NCBI GenBank assembly: GCA_014687725.1
Contig: GCA_014687725.1_4094.1
DNA length: 64,000 nt
Strand: one strand, 5' to 3'
Source of the DNA: a phage
Shown: positions 3,917 to 14,596 of the stretch, piece after piece
Numbering within the stretch: the first letter of the stretch is position 1
Layout of the letters: the number at the start of each line of letters is the position of its first letter
Notes under the pieces: model-generated
The model's database searches: none
What the model was told of the DNA's origin: nothing
Seen by the model: only the letters and a program-made list of their open reading frames with translations
Translations under genes and position numbers: made by a program

Positions 3917-4126
3917 ATGCTTACTGTACAGGATAAGATCGACATCTTAAAGGTTAATATGTATGTGATTGATGCAGTACCTGGTAAAGTATTTGCATAC
4001 GATGACACCACTGTAAGCGATTTCTACTATAGCCAGGACGTGGGGGATCTTTCTGTACAGTCGGTTATTGAAAACGTAGTTAATGCAGCGTATGAGCATT
4101 TACTTTCAAATAGTACTTGCAATTAG
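3917..4126 (+). CDS. hypothetical protein (69 aa)
   Basis: ATG 6 nt after previous stop, SD AAAAGG. Confidence 0.6.
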   Translation: MLTVQDKIDILKVNMYVIDAVPGKVFAYDDTTVSDFYYSQDVGDLSVQSVIENVVNAAYEHLLSNSTCN

Positions 4127-4176
4127 TTTTTAAACGCGTATAATGTTTTACATGAAGGGGAGAAATGATTCTCCCC
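4116..4176 (+). promoter_or_regulatory. class I early promoter + 5'UTR stem-loop cassette
   Basis: TTGCAA 4117-4122, TATAAT 4139-4144, hairpin GGGGAGAAATGATTCTCCCC 4157-4176. Confidence 0.6.
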
Positions 4177-4195
4177 ACTAATTAAGGAATATGAA

Positions 4196-4342
4196 ATGAA
4201 AGCATCAAAAAAGAGTAATACTAAGAAAGCACGTTCACCTTTCGCTGGGGTATTCCCTTTACGTTTCGTTGATGAAGTGGTTTCCTACCCGCCTGGCCTT
4301 ACTCCTGAGATGGTAGAAAGTTTGCGTAAATCTAAAAAATAA
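4196..4342 (+). CDS. basic small protein (48 aa)
   Basis: ATG with SD AAGGAA; below track size cut-off. Confidence 0.55.
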   Translation: MKASKKSNTKKARSPFAGVFPLRFVDEVVSYPPGLTPEMVESLRKSKK

Positions 4343-4344
4343 TA

Positions 4345-4405
4345 CTTGCAATTAGTTTTTAGTACTGTATAATAGTTTACATGAAGGGGAGAAATAGTTC
4401 TCCCC
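4345..4405 (+). promoter_or_regulatory. class I early promoter + 5'UTR stem-loop cassette
   Basis: TTGCAA 4346-4351, TATAAT 4368-4373, hairpin GGGGAGAAATAGTTCTCCCC 4386-4405. Confidence 0.6.
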
Positions 4406-4423
4406 AATAACAGGAGAAACAAA

Positions 4424-4576
4424 ATGAAACAATATAATGCTCGGATGGATGTAACTATCGGTAACGGCAAAGGTCAATTCTCTTTCAGTACTCGCAAAAG
4501 TTATACAGAAAACTTCCTGCGTAATTGTGCACTGACCGCCGCACAAATTAAACATTACTTTCAGGCTAAAAAATGA
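4424..4576 (+). CDS. hypothetical small protein (50 aa)
   Basis: ATG with SD AGGAGA; below track cut-off. Confidence 0.55.
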   Translation: MKQYNARMDVTIGNGKGQFSFSTRKSYTENFLRNCALTAAQIKHYFQAKK

Positions 4577-4662
4577 AATCATTAGCTTATTACAGTTCGG
4601 CCCTGGTCGGTGCATTGATCGCGGCATTGTTAGTAACCTATCTATTCTTTATGGTGATTTAA
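4573..4662 (+). CDS. 29-aa hydrophobic peptide (one predicted TM helix)
   Basis: ATGA overlap with upstream stop; MKSLAYYSSALVGALIAALLVTYLFFMVI. Confidence 0.4.
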   Translation: MKSLAYYSSALVGALIAALLVTYLFFMVI

Positions 4663-4800
4663 ATGAATCCTAACGGTTTAATTTACAGTACTCCTAAAAC
4701 GAAAGCAGATAAAGCGAAAGCACGTAAAGCGAAAGTAAAGGAGTACATCAAGCAAGGCATGACGCGAAAGGCGGCAATTCTAAAAGCTAAAAATAAATGA
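4663..4800 (+). CDS. lysine-rich small protein (45 aa)
   Basis: ATG directly after upstream TAA; followed by R1 terminator. Confidence 0.45.
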   Translation: MNPNGLIYSTPKTKADKAKARKAKVKEYIKQGMTRKAAILKAKNK

Positions 4801-4808
4801 AAAAAAAA

Positions 4809-4895
4809 GTGGTTGACTTCGGTCAGCCATTTTGCTATTATGTATTCATTGAGAGATAGCTCACTAGCCCACAGGGTGCATAAGTGTATCTATTG
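4809..4895 (+). repeat. R1 terminator-promoter cassette, copy A (divergent)
   Basis: hairpin TGGTTGACTTCGGTCAGCCA 4810-4829 + T-run; TTGACT 4813-4818 inside hairpin, 17-nt spacer, TATTAT 4836-4841; 3' box AGCCCACAGGGTGCATAAGTGTATCTATTG. Confidence 0.55.
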
Positions 4896-4944
4896 TATAA
4901 TGATTGAGTACTGAAAACTATTTTAAAGTATTTGATAAAAAGTA

Positions 4945-5004
4945 CTTGCATACTATCTCAATAGGCGTATAATGTTTTACATCGCAAGGGGAAACGGTTT
5001 CCCC
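4945..5004 (+). promoter_or_regulatory. class I early promoter + 5'UTR stem-loop cassette
   Basis: CTTGCA 4945-4950, TATAAT 4968-4973, hairpin GGGGAAACGGTTTCCCC 4988-5004. Confidence 0.6.
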
Positions 5005-5024
5005 TGGTAATAAGGAAACGAATC

Positions 5025-5366
5025 ATGACTATTGCAATTGCTCAATCTAACTTTGAAAACGAAATCATCGCTCAGGCACTGCGTTTAAATGATGGTCGGG
5101 CCGAAATCAATTACGGTTTCAATAGTGGTGGATGTGAAAAATATCAGTACTTTATAACTGCTGATGGCGGTGTCCTGGGCATCAATACCGTTATTGTAAA
5201 CATTCAGAAAATTAATTTCAATGATCCAGACGATAGCCAGTTTTACATCACGGGCGTAGACGTGAACTATGAGGATGACTCACTAACTGATGATCACACT
5301 GGTGAGAAGTTAGAAAGTGCATACGGTGAAGATGATTATCAGTCCGGTCCAGAAGATTTCGAATAA
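5025..5366 (+). CDS. hypothetical acidic protein (113 aa)
   Basis: ATG with SD AAGGAA. Confidence 0.7.
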   Translation: MTIAIAQSNFENEIIAQALRLNDGRAEINYGFNSGGCEKYQYFITADGGVLGINTVIVNIQKINFNDPDDSQFYITGVDVNYEDDSLTDDHTGEKLESAYGEDDYQSGPEDFE

Positions 5367-5458
5367 TATTAAAAAATAGTTTGACAATAGTTTTTAGTAC
5401 TGTATAATAGTTTACATGAAGGGGAGAAATGATTCTCCCCACTAAGAGGAAAAACAAA

Positions 5459-5671
5459 ATGGCTAATATCCGCACTGTACTGAAAAATGCAAAACAAGTT
5501 TTATTTTCTGATCATGAAAATTTCAACAAGGATATCACAGGTGTTCGGAATATCAAAGATGTAAAAAGTGTTATGGGTATCTATTGCAATATGAAACGTG
5601 TTGGCACGTTCGGCGATAAAGTACTATACCAGGCAGGGGATTACAATTTTACACTGACTATCATTAACTAA
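5459..5671 (+). CDS. hypothetical small protein (70 aa)
   Basis: ATG 5459 with SD AGAGGA; track start 5429 lies inside leader hairpin. Confidence 0.7.
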   Translation: MANIRTVLKNAKQVLFSDHENFNKDITGVRNIKDVKSVMGIYCNMKRVGTFGDKVLYQAGDYNFTLTIIN

Positions 5672-5684
5672 AAATATTATCACA

Positions 5685-5720
5685 GTACTATTGACAACGT
5701 TTGATAGTACTGGCATAATA
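5685..5720 (+). promoter_or_regulatory. class II palindromic promoter
   Basis: TTGACA 5691-5696, CATAAT 5714-5719; CAGTACTATTGACA..TGATAGTACTG. Confidence 0.55.
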
Positions 5721-5762
5721 ACTTTTATCAAGACAACGCATATTAATTTAAGGAATACTAAA

Positions 5763-5942
5763 ATGGCTATTATCGCAAAAACTGAAATCATCGGCCTGGA
5801 TTCTATCATCATGACGTTTGAAGATCAAAAAGGGATGTATGTAGTTTCCTATGGTGATTATGTTCGGGAGTATGAAACGGTAGACGAAGCCTTTGAAAGT
5901 TACATTCGCCAGGTGAATAAAGCATACGACGACTACCGCTAA
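5763..5942 (+). CDS. hypothetical small protein (59 aa)
   Basis: ATG 5763 with SD AAGGAA; track ORF started in promoter. Confidence 0.6.
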   Translation: MAIIAKTEIIGLDSIIMTFEDQKGMYVVSYGDYVREYETVDEAFESYIRQVNKAYDDYR

Positions 5943-5961
5943 AATATATTACCAGTACTAT

Positions 5962-5997
5962 TAAATCTATTGACAATGATTGATAGTACAGTATAAT
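5962..5997 (+). promoter_or_regulatory. class II palindromic promoter
   Basis: TTGACA 5970-5975, TATAAT 5992-5997. Confidence 0.5.
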
Positions 5998-6041
5998 AAG
6001 TTTTATAAACAGTAGTTAACTTAACCTAAGAGAGAAACAAA

Positions 6042-6185
6042 ATGATCGCACTGGATTCATTCATCGACGCAGTACTGGCAAAAACTGGCGAGGATCTGAC
6101 CGCAGAACAATACGCGATGATCGAGCAATGCCAGCAAAACGGTAAATCGGTGAAAGATACTGTTAAGATTATCCGCAAGATGTAA
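6042..6185 (+). CDS. hypothetical small protein (47 aa)
   Basis: ATG with SD AAGAGAGA; below track cut-off. Confidence 0.55.
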   Translation: MIALDSFIDAVLAKTGEDLTAEQYAMIEQCQQNGKSVKDTVKIIRKM

Positions 6186-6191
6186 GAATAT

Positions 6192-6220
6192 AGCCCACTG
6201 GTTAACGCTGGTGGGCTTTA
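6192..6220 (+). terminator. terminator-like hairpin containing a Chi octamer
   Basis: stem AGCCCAC/GTGGGCT with 12-nt loop, weak T-tract; GCTGGTGG 6207-6214. Confidence 0.4.
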
Positions 6221-6290
6221 ATCATTTACCCTATACAATGCCAGTACTAAACCGTTTAACTCGTTAGAATGCATTACAGGACGTTTAACA

Positions 6291-6488
6291 ATGATTAGCA
6301 TGAAATCAGTACAAAAACAAATTGATACATTATCAAAAATTAAACGTAAACAATACTCATTAGAATATACAATCAATGGTAACTATCATCTAATGAAAGA
6401 GAATAATTTCATAGTCATTGATGAATCATTGCAAGTTATTAGTATAGTACTGAAAGCATTAATCAATGACAGAAAAAAGTTAAAATAA
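6291..6488 (+). CDS. hypothetical small protein (65 aa), weak
   Basis: Track ORF; poor SD, very AT-rich. Confidence 0.35.
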   Translation: MISMKSVQKQIDTLSKIKRKQYSLEYTINGNYHLMKENNFIVIDESLQVISIVLKALINDRKKLK

Positions 6489-6492
6489 TCTA

Positions 6493-6521
6493 TTGACAAA
6501 TTATGCCAGTACTGGCATAAT
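6493..6521 (+). promoter_or_regulatory. class II-type promoter
   Basis: TTGACA 6493-6498, 17-nt spacer, CATAAT 6516-6521. Confidence 0.55.
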
Positions 6522-6583
6522 ACTTACATCAAGACGAGAACGTCACTAACCCATAGGGTGCACAAATGTAGCTGTCTAATATT

Positions 6584-6614
6584 GATCAAAAAATGATCTG
6601 ATCAATACTTGATC
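6584..6614. promoter_or_regulatory. GATC cluster within repeated TGATCA motifs (4 GATC in 31 bp)
   Basis: GATC at 6584, 6595, 6600, 6611; sits in a 330-bp gene-free region. Confidence 0.5.
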
Positions 6615-6819
6615 AATTTGCGTAAAGTAGTATAATTCTATGCAGTTGGTTAGACGAAAGGTTATGATTAGTAGTGGAAGTGTATAAAAATTTTCATGGT
6701 GTGGTGATCCGCACATATGGGGATGAATATGTCGTGTCGTATGGATTGGAAAAAGTAAGAACAAGTAATATACTTGTCGCGTTACAGTACTATAGTATTT
6801 TTATAATGAGGTTAAAATA

Positions 6820-7077
6820 ATGGCTGTAGGATTCACGAAAGATGGGGCCGAGCAAGACGAGATTAACGCAGTGATTCAGGCCGCTGTTAACCACGCTAGA
6901 ACGCAAATTAACGCACAAATAGAATCACTGATACATTGCCTCGACTGCGGCGATATAATCCCTGAGAAACGACGCCAGGCCGTTAAGGGATGTAAGTACT
7001 GCATAACTTGCCAGGAGGATCATGATAGTACTTTTAAACGTCCCCCGCGTAATTGTTGGCATAGATCTATGAGATAA
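6820..7077 (+). CDS. DksA/TraR-family C4 zinc-finger protein
   Basis: CLDCGDIIPEKRRQAVKGCKYC matches the TraR/DksA zinc-finger signature (CxxC...GxxIPxxRRxA...CxxC). Confidence 0.75.
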   Translation: MAVGFTKDGAEQDEINAVIQAAVNHARTQINAQIESLIHCLDCGDIIPEKRRQAVKGCKYCITCQEDHDSTFKRPPRNCWHRSMR

Positions 7078-7083
7078 AAAGTA

Positions 7084-7111
7084 TTGACAGTACTGAAAGA
7101 TAGTGTATAAT
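7084..7111 (+). promoter_or_regulatory. sigma70-like promoter
   Basis: TTGACA 7084-7089, 16-nt spacer, TATAAT 7106-7111. Confidence 0.5.
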
Positions 7112-7140
7112 ATTTTATATCTTAACTGAGGATTGAAATC

Positions 7141-7497
7141 ATGGGAATACAACATATCACGCGTACTACTGACAATGGCGAGATCACTGGCTATCAAGTA
7201 CAGGGCAAAGTAGCACAATTGCAGTACTGGTTTGTTAAACGTGGAATCATTGCACCGGATCTTGATTATGACCGTGTAGCGTTTATTGATTCTCTTTATG
7301 TTGATCCTGATAGTCGGGGCAATGGTGAAGGTAACGAATTAATGAATGCCTTTATTGATGCCGCCGATGATTCAGATTGTATCATTTTAGAATGCGATAC
7401 GGGAGAAGATAACGCCTTTAATCTTAAAGAATGGTACGAAGGTTTCGGATTCGAGGTACTGATCGATAGTGAATATCCTATCATGATTTTATCATAG
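7141..7497 (+). CDS. GNAT-family acetyltransferase-like protein (118 aa)
   Basis: VDPDSRGNGEGNELMNAF resembles the acetyl-CoA-binding R/QxxGxG/A loop; family call tentative. Confidence 0.6.
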   Translation: MGIQHITRTTDNGEITGYQVQGKVAQLQYWFVKRGIIAPDLDYDRVAFIDSLYVDPDSRGNGEGNELMNAFIDAADDSDCIILECDTGEDNAFNLKEWYEGFGFEVLIDSEYPIMILS

Positions 7498-7575
7498 TAC
7501 TTGCATTTAGTTTTCAGTACTGTTATAGTACTTACATCAAGGGGAAACATCTTCCCCTACTAAGAGGAAATAAAA

Positions 7576-7764
7576 ATGGAAAACTTATCAAGTATTTTAG
7601 TACAAGATGATTTCGGTAATCCTGGAAGTGCTATCATTGTTCGGGGTAATAAAGCAACATTTGTTATTGCTGGTGGACCTGTACAGCGTAGCATTAAAAA
7701 TAATGCTGTTACCATTAATAATGTACGCTATCGCTTAGATAAAGAATTGATTCATAAACTTTAA
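7576..7764 (+). CDS. hypothetical small protein (62 aa)
   Basis: ATG with SD AAGAGGAA behind class I cassette. Confidence 0.65.
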   Translation: MENLSSILVQDDFGNPGSAIIVRGNKATFVIAGGPVQRSIKNNAVTINNVRYRLDKELIHKL

Positions 7765-7848
7765 AAAGTATTTGACAATAGATTATAGTACTGTATAATA
7801 AGTTACATGAAGGGGTGAAATGATTCTCCCCACTAAGAGGAAAGAAAA

Positions 7849-8061
7849 ATGCAAGGTCAACTAATCGTTCGTAAATGGTCTGATACTAACGAAAAACCGT
7901 GGGATGTACAATACATCGGACCGGATGGGGTATCACGTTATCAGCCTGGCGTAACGCATAGTACTGAGCAATTCGCAAACGCTCACCGCGAACGCCTGTT
8001 AGAATCCATGAAACAGGGATTCTGTGAAAAATTCATTCAAGATCATTGGCTGAAAGATTAA
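7849..8061 (+). CDS. hypothetical small protein (70 aa)
   Basis: ATG with SD AAGAGGAA behind class I cassette. Confidence 0.7.
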   Translation: MQGQLIVRKWSDTNEKPWDVQYIGPDGVSRYQPGVTHSTEQFANAHRERLLESMKQGFCEKFIQDHWLKD

Positions 8062-8078
8062 TATAAGGAGTACAGCTT

Positions 8079-8171
8079 ATGCAAATGAATCCGATGATTA
8101 TTGTTTTAGCTGTACTTATGATCATTCATGCAATAGTAGAAGTATTAACGCAATCAGGAGTAATAAAATGA
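8079..8171 (+). CDS. 30-aa hydrophobic peptide
   Basis: ATG 8 nt after SD AAGGAG; MQMNPMIIVLAVLMIIHAIVEVL...; below track cut-off. Confidence 0.45.
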   Translation: MQMNPMIIVLAVLMIIHAIVEVLTQSGVIK

Positions 8172-8341
8172 TTCAAGTAGAATTATCAGTACTGAAAGAT
8201 CTGTTTTATCGGTTAGGTACTACTGGCGAGTATCCTAAAAGTGATACCGCAAAACTTTTTGTATCACTCGACTTATGGCAACGCGAACAATTAGTAATGT
8301 CCTGGCGTAAAGGTAAAGCAGATAGCGAGGTGAAAGCATGA
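8168..8341 (+). CDS. hypothetical small protein (57 aa)
   Basis: ATGA overlap with upstream stop; below track cut-off. Confidence 0.5.
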   Translation: MIQVELSVLKDLFYRLGTTGEYPKSDTAKLFVSLDLWQREQLVMSWRKGKADSEVKA

Positions 8342-8487
8342 AAGAATTCTTATTCGAAGTAGTGTTTCAAGGTGTCGGTAGTAACCAACTGATTCGCTCA
8401 AGTGGTTACAATGTTAACCAGGCATGGAATAACATTAAACAAATGTACCCGAACGCTATCACCTATCGCAACCCGAAACAAGTTTAA
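8338..8487 (+). CDS. hypothetical small protein (49 aa)
   Basis: ATGA overlap with upstream stop; followed by R1 terminator. Confidence 0.5.
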   Translation: MKEFLFEVVFQGVGSNQLIRSSGYNVNQAWNNIKQMYPNAITYRNPKQV

Positions 8488-8494
8488 AAATAAT

Positions 8495-8585
8495 TGAAAA
8501 AGGGATTGACTCCGGTCAGTCCCTTTGCTATTATATACGCATAGAAACAAATCAGCCCACAGGGTGCATAAATGTATCTATTGTT
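8495..8585 (+). repeat. R1 terminator-promoter cassette, copy B
   Basis: A-run + hairpin GGGATTGACTCCGGTCAGTCCC 8502-8523 + T-run; TTGACT 8506-8511, 17-nt spacer, TATTAT 8529-8534; 3' box ..AGCCCACAGGGTGCATAAATGTATCTATTG. Confidence 0.6.
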
Positions 8586-8812
8586 TGCTGGTGGCTAGTA
8601 CTATCAAGTACTGAAAACTATTTTTAAAAAAGTACTTGCATTGTACTTAGAATCAAGTATAATGTTTTACATCAGGACGGGGAACGAAACAAGTAACCCC
8701 GTTAAGTAGTCCAGGAGTAAGACATAAGAAAACCTCCCCTGATAAAATAGTTTGACAATAGAAAGTAAACGAGTATAATACTTACATCAACCACTGATAA
8801 GGAAACATTAAA

Positions 8813-9088
8813 ATGCGGATTCTACTGACAGCTAACGAAATCGAACAAGTACTGACTACTAACCTGGAAGACTGGAAACGTGAAGCAGATATCCAGGCGG
8901 TTCAACGGCTTAACGATGAGTTAACGCCGGATGACTTAAGCAAGATTGTAGATCCTCAATTCTACGAAGATATCCACGACACCGCGTTAAGCGTCGAGGA
9001 TGTACTAGATAAGCACTACATTGATATTGATTTGCAGGTTTACGGTCGTAAAAACTTTATCACTATTCACGACATTTACAATAATTAA
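8813..9088 (+). CDS. hypothetical protein (91 aa)
   Basis: ATG with SD AAGGAA; two promoters upstream. Confidence 0.7.
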   Translation: MRILLTANEIEQVLTTNLEDWKREADIQAVQRLNDELTPDDLSKIVDPQFYEDIHDTALSVEDVLDKHYIDIDLQVYGRKNFITIHDIYNN

Positions 9089-9174
9089 GTATTGACAAAG
9101 TATCTTAGTACTGTATAATAGTTTACATCGAGAGGGGGAATGGTTCCCCTCCTAACAAAGAGAGAGAAATAAAA

Positions 9175-9357
9175 ATGGCTAAATGCACTATCTGTAAGAA
9201 AGAAATCGTATTAGTTCCAAGTGCCCGTGAACGTGCCGCTCGGTTCGGTGGCAAACCGTCAGACTATACAAAAATGTTTACTGTCCATGCAGCTTGCCAG
9301 GTAGCAAAACGTTCACAAGAAAGCGTAGAATTAATGCGTAAACTTTCCAAAAAATAA
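9175..9357 (+). CDS. hypothetical small protein (60 aa), Cys-containing
   Basis: ATG with SD AGAGAGA behind class I cassette. Confidence 0.7.
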   Translation: MAKCTICKKEIVLVPSARERAARFGGKPSDYTKMFTVHAACQVAKRSQESVELMRKLSKK

Positions 9358-9445
9358 GTATTGACAAAGTATCTTAGTACTGTATAATAGTTTACATCAA
9401 GTGAGGGGAAACGGTTCCCCTCCTAACAAAGAGAGAGAAATAAAA

Positions 9446-9769
9446 ATGGCTATGATCCTTGCCCAGAAAGTAGAACTGAAAATTGTAACCTCCTTTGACA
9501 TTAAAGTTAATCGGTGGACTGATTCACACGGCAATACTTACCACTCTTGCTACGTGTCTGCGTTAATTGGTGATCGTTGGGAAGACCTGGGACATGAAAC
9601 CTTTACATACGGTTACGGCACACAAGGCGAATACACGGGCTTGGAGATCATTAAAGAAACCGTTATAGGTTTCAACCCGAAAGAAACAGTTATTCACCGC
9701 ATCGAGGAAGAGATCAACAAAGAAATAACAGTTCGATACTACGATGTAAAACGTAAGAAAGATATGTAA
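9446..9769 (+). CDS. hypothetical protein (107 aa)
   Basis: ATG 9446; track start 9401 is a GTG inside the leader hairpin; cassette 9355-9445 duplicates 9084-9174. Confidence 0.7.
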   Translation: MAMILAQKVELKIVTSFDIKVNRWTDSHGNTYHSCYVSALIGDRWEDLGHETFTYGYGTQGEYTGLEIIKETVIGFNPKETVIHRIEEEINKEITVRYYDVKRKKDM

Positions 9770-9855
9770 TAGAATCCATTTAAAGTACTATTTGACATTG
9801 CCCAGATAGTACTTTATAATAGACTCTAACTTGTAGTACTAACTCAACTAATAGG

Positions 9856-10260
9856 ATGTATACCATGATTACTAAATTCTACGCTACCCGTGAAGCTGCC
9901 CGTATTGTTGCACGCGAGGAAGGAGCAGCATTTAAAGACATGGGCAAAGATGCACCGAAAGGCCAACGCTGGGCCGTACAGTTCAAAGAGATCTCTGATA
10001 TTGTGAATTCACCTGAGCCAGTACTAACAGCAGCAGAACTAAAACGAGCGGATTTACTGGCGTCAATACTTGATGCACAAGATGAGTTTATCGCTGATTC
10101 TGATATCAAAGTACAGACAAACCATACCGCTTGGACTCACGCGGATCACCTGGCAAACCTGAAGCGTCCAAGTGAACTGGTACGCAACCAGAAAGAGATC
10201 CGACACGACCGTAAGGGTAATCGTGTAACAGTATACAGTAAACGCCGCCAGGTTATCTAA
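9856..10260 (+). CDS. hypothetical protein (134 aa)
   Basis: Track ORF; alternative ATG at 9865; GC-richer than neighbours. Confidence 0.7.
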   Translation: MYTMITKFYATREAARIVAREEGAAFKDMGKDAPKGQRWAVQFKEISDIVNSPEPVLTAAELKRADLLASILDAQDEFIADSDIKVQTNHTAWTHADHLANLKRPSELVRNQKEIRHDRKGNRVTVYSKRRQVI

Positions 10261-10282
10261 TAACTTGCAGTACTAACAACAC

Positions 10283-10308
10283 GGCGGGATCAGTTCCCGC
10301 CTTTTTTA
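10283..10308 (+). terminator. rho-independent terminator
   Basis: stem GGCGGGA/TCCCGCC + T6. Confidence 0.8.
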
Positions 10309-10321
10309 TAGGACAAACAAA

Positions 10322-10576
10322 ATGATTAAGGTTCAACTATATAAAGATAATATCTTGCGGGTACACTATAAAGCCCCTCAGAGAATCATCACAAAGGCCG
10401 TACAGCTTGCTAATGAGTTTATTAATGGTAACCTATTACCAAGGAAGTTAAGCAACGGAAAACTGCGTGTAATCGATGTAGACACTAACAACAGAATAGT
10501 AATTGAGAACACAGGAAAGATAAACCTATATGAACACCAACAATATAATAAGAAAATAAAACTAATATCACGTTGA
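10322..10576 (+). CDS. hypothetical protein (84 aa)
   Basis: ATG with SD AGGA. Confidence 0.6.
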   Translation: MIKVQLYKDNILRVHYKAPQRIITKAVQLANEFINGNLLPRKLSNGKLRVIDVDTNNRIVIENTGKINLYEHQQYNKKIKLISR

Positions 10577-10629
10577 CAGTACTCAATTGTTTTAGTACTA
10601 TGTACATATACCAACACGGGAGAAACAAA

Positions 10630-10848
10630 ATGAAATTATCTAAAATCGAAAAGAAAACTATTGATGAAGCAGTTAAGCACGGTTATACCTTTCGTAATGA
10701 TTCACATTTTACCAATTTTCAACAAGGGTATCGTACTATTAAAAAACTCATTGACAAAGGTTTATTAGTTGAAGTCAATAACGGCAATGGTATTGAGTAT
10801 CAACCAACACAAGACGCATTTTATTTTAAGAAATATAATATTATCTAA
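10630..10848 (+). CDS. hypothetical protein (72 aa)
   Basis: ATG 10630 with SD GGGAGAAA; track start 10573 is the TTG of the promoter -35. Confidence 0.65.
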   Translation: MKLSKIEKKTIDEAVKHGYTFRNDSHFTNFQQGYRTIKKLIDKGLLVEVNNGNGIEYQPTQDAFYFKKYNII

Positions 10849-10905
10849 TTGACAGTACTCAAATGTTTTAGTACTATATGTACATACCAACACGGGGAAA
10901 ACAAA

Positions 10906-11148
10906 ATGATTACTTTAGAAAAACGTATCAAAGAAACTACATCGCTGGTGGAACTGTTAACAGTACTGAAATGCCGTACTACTCGGTTTAGTACACCGGA
11001 CTTTATTAATATGGTTGATGTTAACGGTCGTTATCGCATTGCAGTAGAACAAGGAACAGCGAAAGTATTCAGTACTAAAAACACTAAGGAAGTGATTCAT
11101 GCTGTAAGTGTTAAAAAAGTAGTTGCCATTGATAGTAAAGTACTGTAA
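10906..11148 (+). CDS. hypothetical protein (80 aa)
   Basis: ATG 10906; promoter/leader block 10849-10905 duplicates 10563-10629. Confidence 0.65.
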   Translation: MITLEKRIKETTSLVELLTVLKCRTTRFSTPDFINMVDVNGRYRIAVEQGTAKVFSTKNTKEVIHAVSVKKVVAIDSKVL

Positions 11149-11179
11149 GATAGTTTCATTAACTCAAGGAGAACATGCA

Positions 11180-11764
11180 ATGCGTAATTATACTAAATTC
11201 ATCCGTACCCTGTCAGAAATGGAAACCAACAAAGAGATCCTTTCAGCTTGTCGGTTAGCTGGTCTGGAGATCATCGGTGCGGGTTCTTCCCGTATTGTAT
11301 TCGCTTTAAATGATCGGTTAGTGATCAAGGTCGCGAATTGTGATGCGGGTGTAGAACAAAATGAAACTGAATGTAAGGTATGGAATTTTTTAGATTATGA
11401 CCGCCCTCAATTGAAACAGTACTTTGCAAAGGTGCATATGCATTTATGCGATCCTGATAATATGTTTATCGTTATGGATCGGTTGAGTACTGCAAGTAAA
11501 GGCAGTGTAAAGCACGTAAACGCGTGCAATGAATTAAAGTACAATATTAAACGTAATGCCATTGAACGCCAGCACCGCTTTGCTGATGCACTACAACACG
11601 TTGATGATACATTATCAACACTAACGATAAGAGATATCAGAAAACAGAATATCGGCCAGGATCGTAATGGCCTTATTAAAGTACTTGATTACGGTTTAAC
11701 CCGCAATATCTGGAATCAGTACTATAAAAAGCGTGATGTAGAAGCAAGTAAGGTAACACGATAA
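11180..11764 (+). CDS. protein kinase-like protein (eukaryote-type kinase fold)
   Basis: Gly-rich loop GAGSSRIVF, VIKVA lysine, catalytic-loop-like IRDIRKQN, DFG-like DYG; ATG with SD AAGGAG. Confidence 0.75.
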   Translation: MRNYTKFIRTLSEMETNKEILSACRLAGLEIIGAGSSRIVFALNDRLVIKVANCDAGVEQNETECKVWNFLDYDRPQLKQYFAKVHMHLCDPDNMFIVMDRLSTASKGSVKHVNACNELKYNIKRNAIERQHRFADALQHVDDTLSTLTIRDIRKQNIGQDRNGLIKVLDYGLTRNIWNQYYKKRDVEASKVTR

Positions 11765-11771
11765 AAAAGAT

Positions 11772-11862
11772 TAAAAAAGGGATTGACTCCGGTCAGTCCC
11801 TTTGCTATTATATATTCATTGAGAGATAACTCACTGACCCATAGGGTGCGGAAGTGTATCTA
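11772..11862 (+). repeat. R1 terminator-promoter cassette, copy C
   Basis: hairpin 11779-11800; TTGACT 11783-11788, TATTAT 11806-11811. Confidence 0.6.
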
Positions 11863-11984
11863 TTATATAAGTATTCAGTACTGAAAACTATTTTAAAAAA
11901 GTACTTGCAATGTACTTAGAATCAAGTATAATGTTTTACATAGAGAGGGGGAAATGGTTCTCCCTGGTAATAAGGAATAAAATC

Positions 11985-12206
11985 ATGACTACAATGACTT
12001 GCATTTACGCTTCCAATCTTCTGAATGATGCGGCCTTTAATGTTGATTCAGAATATCAATGTTATCGGGATGAAAATAAAAAAGTTTTTGTAGTTGATAA
12101 TAATGGTTTCCATATTGAATTACAATCCGGTTTCACTGGTGTTGATGGTAAATCAGTGTGGGGCGTACAGGATGATAAAGGCACATATCATTTTAAACGT
12201 AATTAA
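11985..12206 (+). CDS. hypothetical small protein (73 aa)
   Basis: ATG 11985 with SD AAGGAA; track start 11910 is inside promoter/leader. Confidence 0.7.
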   Translation: MTTMTCIYASNLLNDAAFNVDSEYQCYRDENKKVFVVDNNGFHIELQSGFTGVDGKSVWGVQDDKGTYHFKRN

Positions 12207-12290
12207 GTATTGACAAAGTATATCAGTACTGTATAATAGTTTACATCAAGGGGAGAATAGTTCTCCCCGATACTAAAAGGAAACAAAATT

Positions 12291-12563
12291 ATGTCCAGCT
12301 ACTCCGCTACTATGATCATTAAAGATATGAACGGTAATCCTACTTCTGCTGGTGGATCATTTGGAAACATTAATTTAGATGGTCGGTTATCCATGCAATC
12401 AGCCATCGATGCAGCGAAAGAAGTTTTTAAGAATGAATGTACTGTTAGTAAGCTGGATTATATGGGATTCGCTATCGAGAAAACTAATCGTTTTGTGAAC
12501 TACAAAAATCCACTGATGATTGATACTAACCTGAAAGCTAACGAAGTGGGGTACTTATTATGA
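12291..12563 (+). CDS. hypothetical protein (90 aa)
   Basis: ATG with SD AAAGGAA behind class I cassette. Confidence 0.7.
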   Translation: MSSYSATMIIKDMNGNPTSAGGSFGNINLDGRLSMQSAIDAAKEVFKNECTVSKLDYMGFAIEKTNRFVNYKNPLMIDTNLKANEVGYLL

Positions 12564-12751
12564 CAGTAGAAGAAGTTAAAAAAGTACTGGCAGTACTACG
12601 CTATCATAATCATTGCAAGGTGAAGAATGATCCTGATTATGTTGATTCATCCCTGGAGGAAGACACATTAAACGCAATAAGCCATATGCAAACATTAGCA
12701 AAGCGTATGACCGAAAAGAATAGACCGGACTATATCGGAAATAAAATTTAA
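12560..12751 (+). CDS. hypothetical small protein (63 aa)
   Basis: ATGA overlap with upstream stop. Confidence 0.6.
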   Translation: MTVEEVKKVLAVLRYHNHCKVKNDPDYVDSSLEEDTLNAISHMQTLAKRMTEKNRPDYIGNKI

Positions 12752-12837
12752 AAAGTACTTGCATTGTAGTTAGATTAACGTATAATGTTTTACATAGAGC
12801 GGGGGAACTATTCCCCCGCCAGTCCAGGAGATACACC

Positions 12838-13101
12838 ATGAACACTATCGAAATCACTATCAATGCACACGTATACGACAACGTAGTACTGCAAACTACT
12901 ATGACCGCTAATGATACCAGTACTTTGCGGAATACTGTTATTAGTGCCGTATGTGCCGCTATCGGTGATGTCGCCCTGGAAAATGCAGAACACATCAACA
13001 ACGGTTTCACTATGTGCAAACGTGATAACGCAAAACATATCATCGTAGAAGGTTACGGCGGTGTAGAATATAATCTTTATATGAAAAAAGTACTTGCATA
13101 A
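12838..13101 (+). CDS. hypothetical protein (87 aa)
   Basis: ATG with SD AGGAGA behind class I cassette. Confidence 0.7.
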   Translation: MNTIEITINAHVYDNVVLQTTMTANDTSTLRNTVISAVCAAIGDVALENAEHINNGFTMCKRDNAKHIIVEGYGGVEYNLYMKKVLA

Positions 13102-13168
13102 TAACTAAAACAAAGTATAATGTTTTGCATAGGGGGAGATATCCTCCCCCACTAAAAGGAGTAATAAA

Positions 13169-13393
13169 ATGGCTAACTTTGATGAACTGATGCGGGAAGT
13201 AGCTAACCTGGCAGAAGAGAAGAAATCATTCGATTCTATCTATAACACCGCTCACCGTGATTCAGTACTGGCATGTACTCAGGATCAAAAAGATGAACTA
13301 ATCGCCACATATCATGAAGCATGGAAGTACTACCGCCAATGGGAGAAAGAAGAAAGCGAGTCTACCATCAACGGCATCAATAATCTAATCTAA
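13169..13393 (+). CDS. hypothetical small protein (74 aa)
   Basis: ATG with SD AAAGGAG behind class I cassette. Confidence 0.7.
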   Translation: MANFDELMREVANLAEEKKSFDSIYNTAHRDSVLACTQDQKDELIATYHEAWKYYRQWEKEESESTINGINNLI

Positions 13394-13469
13394 AAGTTTT
13401 ATTTCAGTACTATTGACATAGCTTGATAGTACTGATGTAATAACTTTACTAACTACAAGGGGAAACATA

Positions 13470-13727
13470 ATGGAACAGTTCACACAATATCGGGTAAATC
13501 CTCAAGCTATGGCCTACGTAGAAGACCATAAAACGTTACCAGTACTAACACCAATTAAAGGCCATATCTATCGTGCAATGTCATGGAATACGGCCCAGGA
13601 TGGATATACTACCGCTGGCGTGGGTATGTATTGCGGGAATGGTGAATGGTTTGATCCAAATAATCCGGTAGCCATTGACAGTACTGAAAAAATGAAATGG
13701 GCCGACTACATCGAAGATATTTCATAA
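13470..13727 (+). CDS. hypothetical protein (85 aa)
   Basis: ATG with SD AAGGGGAA behind class II promoter (TTGACA 13413-13418). Confidence 0.7.
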   Translation: MEQFTQYRVNPQAMAYVEDHKTLPVLTPIKGHIYRAMSWNTAQDGYTTAGVGMYCGNGEWFDPNNPVAIDSTEKMKWADYIEDIS

Positions 13728-13816
13728 AACTATTTGACAGTACTAACCAGTAATGTATAATGTTTTACATAGAGCGGGGGAATAGTTCTCCCGCCAATAG
13801 TTTGGAGTAAAACATT

Positions 13817-14263: not shown

Positions 14264-14596
14264 ATGAGTACTTCAATCGCTATCGTTAAAGCTTTCATCC
14301 GTACCAATGTTTCATCTGTATTCATCGACGGTCTGGATCGGGAAGTAGAATACTCAATCATTATCGCACAGACTGCAAACGGTGCTCGGTATATCCTTAA
14401 TGATAGTGAAGCAAATCACTACTACTTCACTAAAGCTACTGGCTTTAAACGCATCGATGCTGACGTAGTATACACTAAGATGAATAAGCTGGTAGACAAG
14501 ATTAACGCGAAAGGTACTATCGATTTACAGTACTGGACCGAAACCGATCCAGAATATGGATCTCACCGCTACCTGAATCCAGGTATTAAAATGTAA
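14264..14596 (+). CDS. hypothetical protein (110 aa)
   Basis: ATG with SD TAGGAGA. Confidence 0.7.
   Translation: MSTSIAIVKAFIRTNVSSVFIDGLDREVEYSIIIAQTANGARYILNDSEANHYYFTKATGFKRIDADVVYTKMNKLVDKINAKGTIDLQYWTETDPEYGSHRYLNPGIKM

Follow-up and report, generated by a model that had tools for sequence, protein, structure and literature searches.

The open reading frame (ORF) at 6820–7077 of the 64-kb stretch of phage DNA analysed here (the window) is a real gene under purifying selection, and sequence comparison places its 85-residue product in the YbiI subfamily of the DksA/TraR superfamily of C4 zinc-finger proteins, and not with TraR proper. The protein keeps the residues that correspond to the RNA polymerase rim contacts of TraR, but the motif at the tip of the TraR N-terminal helix is replaced. 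The reality of the gene, its family and subfamily, its predicted fold, the conservation of its rim contacts and its promoter context are documented below. I favour, with a probability of about 0.55, a reading in which an early YbiI-type protein docks on RNA polymerase's secondary-channel rim and reprograms host transcription initiation without ppGpp, while sparing phage promoters.

The ORF starts with an ATG at 6820 and ends with a TAA stop at 7075–7077, on the + strand (Table 1). Across the four Asteriusvirus alleles compared, its dN/dS is 0.05–0.18. The start codon at 6820 can be considered fixed, because the N-terminal MAVGF is kept as far as E. coli YbiI, where it reads MASGW. Three ORFs on the opposite strand (6925–7218, 6876–7004 and 6790–6918) were dropped, since selection on the + frame and homology account for the conservation. 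No second DksA/TraR-type ORF was found in the 64-kb window, where the only other CxxC...CxxC piece lies at 14308–14385.

Table 1. Coordinates of the zinc-finger gene, of the elements of its product and of neighbouring features in the window.
Feature	Position	Strand	Basis and remarks
CDS, 85 aa, YbiI-like phage-clade DksA/TraR-superfamily C4 zinc-finger protein	6820–7077	+	ORF, Pfam, PHROG, homology, dN/dS
Shine-Dalgarno GAGG	6808–6811	+	8 nt 5′ of ATG 6820, read from sequence
N-terminal motif MAVGF-x-KDGAEQ-x-E, codons 1–14, in place of the TraR DxxDxA tip	6820–6861	+	Conservation
Long N-terminal helix (predicted), codons 7–29, TraR-N equivalent	6838–6906	+	AlphaFold2; Foldseek match to TraR 6n57_M, 5w1s
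First zinc knuckle C40-L-D-C43	6937–6948	+	Invariant columns; aligns to TraR C37, C40
I47-P48-E49-K50-R51-R52, equivalent to TraR I44-P45-E46-A47-R48-R49 (rim-helix and Si3 contacts)	6958–6975	+	Register n to n-3 (HMMER, hhalign)
Second zinc knuckle C61-I-T-C64 (CITC)	7000–7011	+	C61, C64 invariant; align to TraR C58, C61
C-terminal helix (predicted), codons 62–71, TraR-C equivalent	7003–7032	+	AlphaFold2; hhalign coverage reaches residue 73
Clade-specific tail FKRxPRNCWHRSMR, codons 72–85	7033–7074	+	Conservation; PHROG 25948 matches residues 59–85
48-aa ORF, GTG start	6674–6820	+	TAA overlaps zinc-finger ATG (TAATG); gp293 in 121Q
Candidate promoter TTGATC-16-TATAAT (10/12), nearest to the 48-aa ORF and zinc-finger pair	6609–6636	+	Consensus scan; -35 contains GATC
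Second candidate promoter TTGACA-17-CATAAT, upstream TG (11/12)	6493–6521	+	Consensus scan; conserved in 121Q, CMSTMSU
GATC/GATCAA cluster, four GATC in 31 nt	6584–6614	.	Overlaps -35 of the 6609 promoter
GNAT acetyltransferase gene	7141–7497		3′ of the zinc-finger gene; own perfect promoter 7084–7111

The first-pass annotation had called the product a DksA/TraR-family zinc-finger protein, and had named a Pfam zf-dskA_traR profile search as a check. The search is positive: PF01258 (zf-dskA_traR) scores 41.2 bits, where the gathering score is 24.9 (E = 1.6e-10), with residues 39–68 of the protein on profile positions 5–34 of 36. PHROG 54, 'DksA-like zinc-finger protein', matches residues 12–76 (E = 1.3e-18). 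The peptide that had been singled out as similar to the TraR/DksA signature (CLDCGDIIPEKRRQAVKGCKYC) is indeed present, at residues 40–61, and these two E-values place it far above chance. Together with the homology to YbiI and TraR and the TraR-like fold described below, the Pfam match upholds the family call.

Within the family, the top NCBIfam models are NF008243 (PRK11019, YbiI type) and then TIGR02419, with TraR proper and DksA progressively lower. The NF008243 match places residues 1–72 on profile positions 1–71 of 88, and its score of 79.7 bits lies under the equivalog cutoff of 96, so that the phage clade counts as YbiI-type but diverged, and the protein is no equivalog. The score for NF033459 (DksA_like), 13.9 bits against a cutoff of 105, sets the protein apart from the equivalogs of DksA proper. 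Among proteins of solved structure, E. coli YbiI (2KGO) is closest in sequence, matching at full length over query residues 1–74 (E = 7e-12), followed by the F-plasmid TraR (5W1S, 6N57; E = 2e-5). Profile-profile comparison (hhalign) against aligned TraR-type sequences, namely TraR, lambda Orf73 and five others from phages, gave a probability of 99.3% (E = 1e-20), with only residues 18–73 of the query aligned, on TraR 15–70; over this span the homology is certain.

A profile of the phage clade, searched against 1.84 billion representatives, retrieved 2,488 relatives at E ≤ 1e-3, of which 269 reach E ≤ 1e-10. The best 150 relatives are YbiI-type, with consensus ends MAxG[WF]xxDGAVQDQID at the N-terminus and [YF]NRRGSKDSQLR at the C-terminus. 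The signature of the YbiI subfamily, MA-x-G-[FW]-x-x-[DE]-G-A and, at the end of the tail, [LM]R, is present in the phage protein as MAVGFTKDGA and ...RNCWHRSMR. By these sequence comparisons the protein is a member of the YbiI subfamily, a coherent subfamily set apart from TraR at both ends.

Cysteines C40, C43, C61 and C64 are invariant in the 43 homologues, with the spacing CxxC-x17-CxxC, and are the predicted zinc ligands. The second CxxC had initially been read as CKYC (C58-K-Y-C61), which is three residues off; the true knuckle is CITC, and C58 is not conserved, many homologues, and YbiI and TraR as well, having a Val there. Lambda Orf73 likewise possesses an extra Cys at the position of TraR V55, as does the phage protein with C58.

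An AlphaFold2 model derived from the 43 homologues is of moderate confidence (mean pLDDT 71, pTM 0.40). The predicted architecture consists of a helix at residues 7–29, a zinc globular domain, a helix at residues 62–71, and termini of low confidence, with a pLDDT of ∼51 at residues 1–14 and of 50–58 at residues 72–85. When compared with the PDB using Foldseek, the model matches YbiI (E = 4e-5), and RNA-polymerase-bound TraR (6N57_M, 5W1S) with an RMSD of 2.8–3.0 Å over 67 columns and a TM score, normalised to TraR, of 0.64–0.69. Matches to DksA are weak (E = 0.08–0.7); the phage protein is predicted to have a single N-terminal helix in its 85 amino acids, whereas DksA has a two-helix coiled coil in ∼150. 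TraR is divided into TraR-N (residues 2–27), TraR-G (28–57) and TraR-C (58–73) (PMC6970531), and the modelled phage protein shares its size class and its N-helix, zinc globular domain and C-helix architecture. Like TraR, it is carried by a mobile element whose host is an enterobacterium. The predicted helix 62–71 aligns to TraR 59–68, shorter than TraR-C, and is followed by P75-P76 and a tail unlike anything in TraR. According to this model, a TraR-type C-terminal helix is probably present in the phage protein, but shorter.

The residues of TraR that contact the rim and Si3 have been described (PMC9239242, PMC6970531): in the globular domain, R48 contacts the rim helices, while R49 and E46 contact β′ Si3 (PMC9239242). 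In the phage clade, I47, R51 and R52 do not vary among the 43 homologues, at least 90% of which also have P48 and likewise E49. The equivalents of TraR R48/R49, P45/E46, I44, G54 and Q62 are kept in the phage protein, but that of P43, which is needed for binding in TraR, is not conserved (I46 or K46). Secondary-channel binding is plausible because I47, P48, E49, R51 and R52 are conserved.

The N-terminus is where the two proteins part. TraR-type regulators possess three functional elements, namely DxxDxA at the N-terminal helix tip, the zinc globular domain, and a C-terminal helix that contacts β Si1 (PMC9239242, from the Gourse laboratory). The DxxDxA motif is described as critical to the function of TraR and lambda Orf73, and DksA needs it too (PMC9239242). 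No D..D.A pattern occurs in residues 1–39 of the phage protein, and DxxDxA is found in none of the 43 clade members and in 4 of 157 family representatives. The nearest acidic pattern in the phage protein is D8-x-x-E11-x-x-E14. In an ungapped register TraR D3, D6 and A8 fall on T6, G9 and E11, and hhalign leaves the first 17 residues unaligned with the TraR-type proteins. What stands there is itself strongly conserved, with M1, A2 and G4 invariant and V3, F5, K7, G9, A10, Q12 and E14 conserved in at least 90% of the 43 homologues. The segment that precedes the zinc finger is three residues shorter in TraR than in the phage protein, and TraR S2 is already 4.3 Å from the catalytic Mg2+ (PMC6970531). 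Assuming the same docking, I infer that the conserved N-terminal peptide must reach the active site, or fold at it. With this other conserved peptide in place of the DxxDxA tip, the protein may not affect the active site as TraR does.

At the C-terminus, the tail is basic, and R74, R77, N78, C79, W80, H81, R82, M84 and R85 are conserved in at least 90% of the sequences. TraR has no such tail, whereas YbiI has a homologous one, [YF]NRRGSKDSQLR, and intermediate sequences join the two forms, for example P0097, which ends in ...HNRKVWHRSMR.

On sequence grounds, the source phage is an Asteriusvirus (121Q/PBECO4-like) jumbo coliphage, the region 5000–9000 of the window being 90–96% identical to Asteriusvirus SHEFM2K, UB, SP27, 121Q and PBECO4. 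The Asteriusvirus records label the orthologue 'DksA-like zinc-finger protein', 'C-4 type zinc finger protein' or 'TraR/DksA C4-type zinc finger protein'. The exact 85-residue protein is found at NCBI as HAN3822088.1, on a 349,928-bp contig, and its 90% cluster contains members named TraR/DksA. The family assignment is therefore correct but already public, and not new. Full-length orthologues (84–87 amino acids, 62–97% identity) are present in Asteriusvirus, in other enterobacterial jumbo phages (fENko-Kae01, SE_PL), and in T4-like Straboviridae, among them Moon, Merlin, vB_EcoM_RZ, fHe-Yen9-01 and Klebsiella T4-like phages. In Moon, the gene lies among small genes in the tk-rI accessory region. 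More broadly, tblastn finds DksA/TraR-type matches in 956 phage records. Literature searches returned no experimental study of PHROG 54 members or of the jumbo-phage/T4-like clade.

In several relatives the gene falls in a long terminal repeat. The vB_Ec-M-J orthologue (12349–12606) is inside an annotated direct terminal repeat of 21,525 bp, and two accession numbers for the same protein are consistent with two copies; the fENko-Kae01 homologue is within a 19.7-kb terminal repeat. For fEgEco12, restriction digestion bore out the terminal repeat, of 20,993 bp (PMC13070987), and positions 6480–7140 of the window match positions 11141–11799 of that phage. In the related, Rak2-like phage PA5oct, most of the genes in the long terminal repeat are early ones, and the phage depends on the RNA polymerase of its host (PMC7318152); in phage CBB, the region presumed to be early and to serve host takeover is marked by RpoD-like promoters (PMC5259590). 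Literature searches on Asteriusvirus transcriptomics returned no direct experimental data. By analogy with these phages, it is reasonable to propose that the zinc-finger gene is expressed early by the host polymerase.

The local promoter landscape is in line with that proposal. Perfect TTGACA-N16/17-TATAAT sites number 8 on the + strand of positions 4000–10000, and 12 in the whole window, of which 10 lie within 5381–13761 (+ strand); those of this last interval have conserved spacer and start-site sequences, and discriminators of 26% GC. An early host-takeover role fits, because in the relatives the gene lies in a direct terminal repeat of ∼21 kb, among small genes with consensus σ70 promoters. 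The first-pass annotation had proposed an early host-transcription modulator. The early role gains indirect support from the consensus σ70 promoters, the terminal repeat of the relatives and the early expression in PA5oct, while channel binding and modulation were extrapolated from TraR and DksA.

The two nearest credible promoter candidates upstream of the gene are listed in Table 1; a TATAAT at 6802–6807, 12 nt away from the ATG and lacking a usable -35, was dropped. The 48-aa ORF that overlaps the zinc-finger ATG shows the same 1-nt overlap in 121Q (gp293), with a dN/dS of 0.15 against 121Q at a dS of ∼1.5. It has no Pfam match, and is likely the first cistron of the zinc-finger transcript. 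Downstream, no terminator was predicted between the zinc-finger and GNAT genes. A functional link to GNAT was considered and set aside: the two are adjacent within Asteriusvirus but not in fENko-Kae01 and Moon, and GNAT has its own promoter.

A cluster of GATC sites had also been remarked upstream of the gene, and is real. With 124 occurrences against ∼196 expected, GATC is under-represented in the window, and 6584–6614 is its densest cluster; five GATC/GATCAA sites are kept in 121Q despite sequence divergence. An Rfam scan of 6000–7600 at permissive E-values found no RNA family. The folding of the leader 6526–6680 is unremarkable (z-score −1.66), leaving a structured RNA unsupported in the long 5′ region, and a repeat search found its 100%-conserved part (6526–6563) in a single copy in the window.

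The reading that I favour can be spelled out as follows. The host σ70 RNA polymerase would make the protein early, from the promoters of the terminal-repeat region. The conserved IPExRR patch would then dock on the rim of the secondary channel, the N-terminal helix (residues 7–29) entering the channel, and the short C-terminal helix (62–71) facing the β lobe/Si1. Occupancy of the channel would alter host transcription initiation without ppGpp, such that promoters with unstable open complexes (rRNA, r-protein) would be disfavoured, while the phage consensus promoters, with their AT-rich discriminators, would be spared, and polymerase and resources would move to the phage. Promoters are known to become sensitive to DksA and TraR through GC-rich discriminators and short-lived open complexes (PMC6970531, PMC9239242), and I apply this rule to the phage protein by analogy. 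The binding to RNA polymerase, the early timing and the direction of the regulation are thus the inferred parts of this explanation. The mechanistic claim is plausible, but it draws on relatives from a different branch, whose defining DxxDxA motif was looked for here and is absent. It is therefore too early to transfer the label 'TraR-like regulator of rRNA promoters' automatically to these phage genes, because the YbiI branch lacks the motif of the TraR/DksA mechanism.

The replaced tip motif, next to retained rim contacts, would also fit a plug or competitor, whose zinc-domain patch binds the channel without TraR-type allostery, and which excludes DksA/ppGpp, GreA and GreB, or uses its longer N-terminal peptide to block the active site generally. 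I consider this unlikely overall, although it is an alternative of some weight. The 14 N-terminal residues, including two near-invariant glycines, are among the most conserved of the clade, and their low-confidence prediction is as expected where a segment takes up its fold on binding a partner. Some known channel binders, Rnk for example, are non-regulatory and compete with Gre factors and DksA (PMC9239242). Two observations point instead to a positive, DksA-like activity. Overexpression of YbiI was reported, as data not shown, to overcome the amino-acid auxotrophy that a dksA-null mutation causes (PMC2613031), this statement being the only one on YbiI function that literature searches returned. 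In addition, P2 Orf82 and X. bovienii Gp34, whose DxxDxA motifs are imperfect, are still active, if more weakly (PMC9239242). A protein that excludes DksA/ppGpp would block the host stringent response during infection.

A related and rather doubtful proposal concerns the whole branch, namely that YbiI-type proteins, including the phage clade, are mechanistically distinct secondary-channel factors, with the TraR rim patch kept, a MAVGF-x-KDGAEQ tip reaching the catalytic centre, and a basic tail. If this were true, lytic jumbo and T4-like phages would shut down host transcription early, or shield it from DksA/ppGpp and Gre, by a route other than TraR allostery.

Both termini are specific to the subfamily and unrelated to TraR, and the basic tail FKRxPRNCWHRSMR is very highly conserved. 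This could mean that the resemblance to TraR is one of fold only, and that, instead of RNA polymerase, the protein binds a nucleic acid, the product of a nearby phage gene, or a factor of the host related to stress or iron. The TAATG overlap suggests translational coupling to the small upstream ORF, and the TraR homologue of VP882 works in complex with QisA, the product of a neighbouring gene (bioRxiv 10.64898/2026.07.27.740977). It has also been cautioned that not all C4 zinc-finger homologues act like DksA, some of those without DxxDxA and the C-terminal helix having no DksA-like activity (PMC9239242). I nonetheless regard a target other than RNA polymerase as improbable. The equivalents of the TraR rim-helix and Si3 contacts are invariant across the whole YbiI family, and most of this family occurs in Proteobacteria and in phages that infect them, the lineage bearing Si1 and Si3 (PMC9239242). 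As to the 48-aa ORF, considered as an obligate partner by analogy with the QisA-TraR pair of VP882, it is missing in ph0011-type phages and was dropped from that role. Finally, the notion that the gene is decaying or without function, a passenger in an accessory region that varies, to which the mosaic surroundings, a 332-bp indel directly 5′ of the gene and the chimeric remnant that is all some Mosigvirus phages retain might point, is effectively refuted by the low dN/dS, by the full-length orthologues across Asteriusvirus, other jumbo phages and T4-like Straboviridae, and by the invariance of the zinc ligands and of both termini.

As an annotation, the result is a routine confirmation: the gene is one of many phage 'DksA-like zinc-finger' (PHROG 54) genes. 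The copies in virulent jumbo and T4-like coliphages belong to the YbiI branch, and are without the motif that explains the action of TraR and DksA. The residual interest lies in the YbiI-type termini, and what is at stake is whether lytic phages too use secondary-channel factors for host takeover, as well as a function for E. coli YbiI.

Among known systems, DksA (1TJL, 5VSW, 7KHI) has the Pfam zinc-finger domain in common with the phage protein; the 151 amino acids, two-helix coiled coil, DxxDxA tip and ppGpp-site residues of DksA have no counterpart in the phage protein. E. coli YbiI (2KGO) shares the N-terminal MA-x-G-[FW]-x-x-D-G/D-A, the CxxC-x17-CxxC spacing, IP-x-x-RR and the homologous tail ending in [LM]R. 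It differs in being a chromosomal, σS-associated gene, whereas the gene described here belongs to a phage early region. Other differences are a V in YbiI-type proteins where the phage clade has E11, the DQID at positions 13–16 of the chromosomal YbiI family that the phage clade lacks, and the phage tail RNCWHRSMR, which is shorter than the NRRGSKDSQLR of the YbiI family. The PHROG 54 proteins of T4-like and jumbo phages (Citrobacter phage Moon gp109, 121Q gp294) are direct orthologues, with the same length and termini, encoded among small early-region genes, and nothing substantive distinguishes them from the protein described here.

The zinc-finger gene falls within a stretch of the window where ten perfect consensus promoters were located, all with a common spacer, TAGTACTG, and a common start region, AGTTTACATCAAG, and each followed by a small ORF. 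The rest of the window (∼50 kb) has just two more perfect TTGACA-N16/17-TATAAT sites. Judged from its sequence, this stretch looks like the early-gene array of a terminal repeat. Two near-identical hairpins, AAAG[TG]G[GA]TTGACT[TC]CGGTCAG[CT]C[AC][TC]TTT, each have a promoter-like site of the form TTGACT-17-TATTAT contained in the hairpin plus tail, and each may serve as terminator and promoter in one unit, placed between early genes.

Coordinates of the features, in the window unless another locus is named
Feature	Position	Strand	Description
Promoter array	5381-13761	+	ten perfect TTGACA-N16/17-TATAAT promoters; consensus scan
Hairpins	4806-4833; 8499-8526		two, near-identical, terminator-like
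Indel module	6479-6821		332 bp; upstream of the zinc-finger gene; flanked by an 11-bp direct repeat
Direct repeat copies	6479-6489; 6811-6821		11 bp, GTTAAAATAAT
Conserved leader	6522-6573		∼50 nt; directly downstream of the 6493-6521 promoter-like site
GATC cluster	6584-6614		4 GATC within 31 nt, 3 of 4 being GATCAA; site count
GNAT acetyltransferase	7141-7497		118 aa; downstream of the zinc-finger gene; Pfam PF00583, E=4e-9
Chimeric ORF	L003 1432-1626; L002 1390-1581		63-64 aa; loci from Mosigvirus phages AV110 and TH58

Immediately upstream of the zinc-finger gene lies an indel module containing the 48-aa ORF, the GATC cluster, the conserved leader and two promoter-like sites. Sequence comparison found this module in the window, 121Q and CMSTMSU, and missing from ph0011; as judged from the limits of their matches, UE-S1, G17 and Sharanji also do without it. 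In these four phages, the TAATG overlap with the zinc-finger gene is supplied instead by an upstream 65-aa gene. The leader is nearly fully conserved across the window, 121Q and CMSTMSU, and its flanks diverge. It contains no ORF, has no Rfam match and shows no notable fold. Query positions 1–94, which correspond to 6480-6573, also have matches of 78–84% in further jumbo phages of Klebsiella and E. coli, and the terminal-repeat region of phage Muenster is among these matches.

The window as a whole is depleted in GATC, with 124 sites observed vs ∼196 expected, and the cluster within the module is the densest. It overlaps the -35 element (TTGATC) of the promoter-like site at 6609-6636. Since 121Q retains five GATCAA-type sites around the counterpart of this promoter despite the divergence of the surrounding sequence, the comparison suggests that these sites are under selection. 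Possible roles for the cluster are Dam/SeqA-sensitive control of the promoter, or an operator.

The downstream GNAT gene possesses its own perfect promoter, at 7084-7111, and the two genes remain neighbours throughout Asteriusvirus; Moon and fENko-Kae01 lack this adjacency. In CMSTMSU (locus L006, MH494197.1, an 'UNVERIFIED_ORG' record), the zinc-finger gene was left unannotated and shows four single-base deletions vs its relatives, which are probably sequencing errors rather than the mark of a pseudogene. Across all frames of the window, the sole other CxxC-x(14-20)-CxxC stretch is at 14308-14385 on the + strand, CFICIHRRSGSGSRILNHYRTDCKRC. In the Mosigvirus phages AV110 and TH58, an unrelated N-terminus (MLYDYTGKSEDGV...) is joined to the second zinc knuckle and tail (YCVGCQSMHDEIFKREPRNCWHRSMR); this chimeric ORF, whose counterpart is PHROG 25948, appears to be what recombination has left of the zinc-finger gene.
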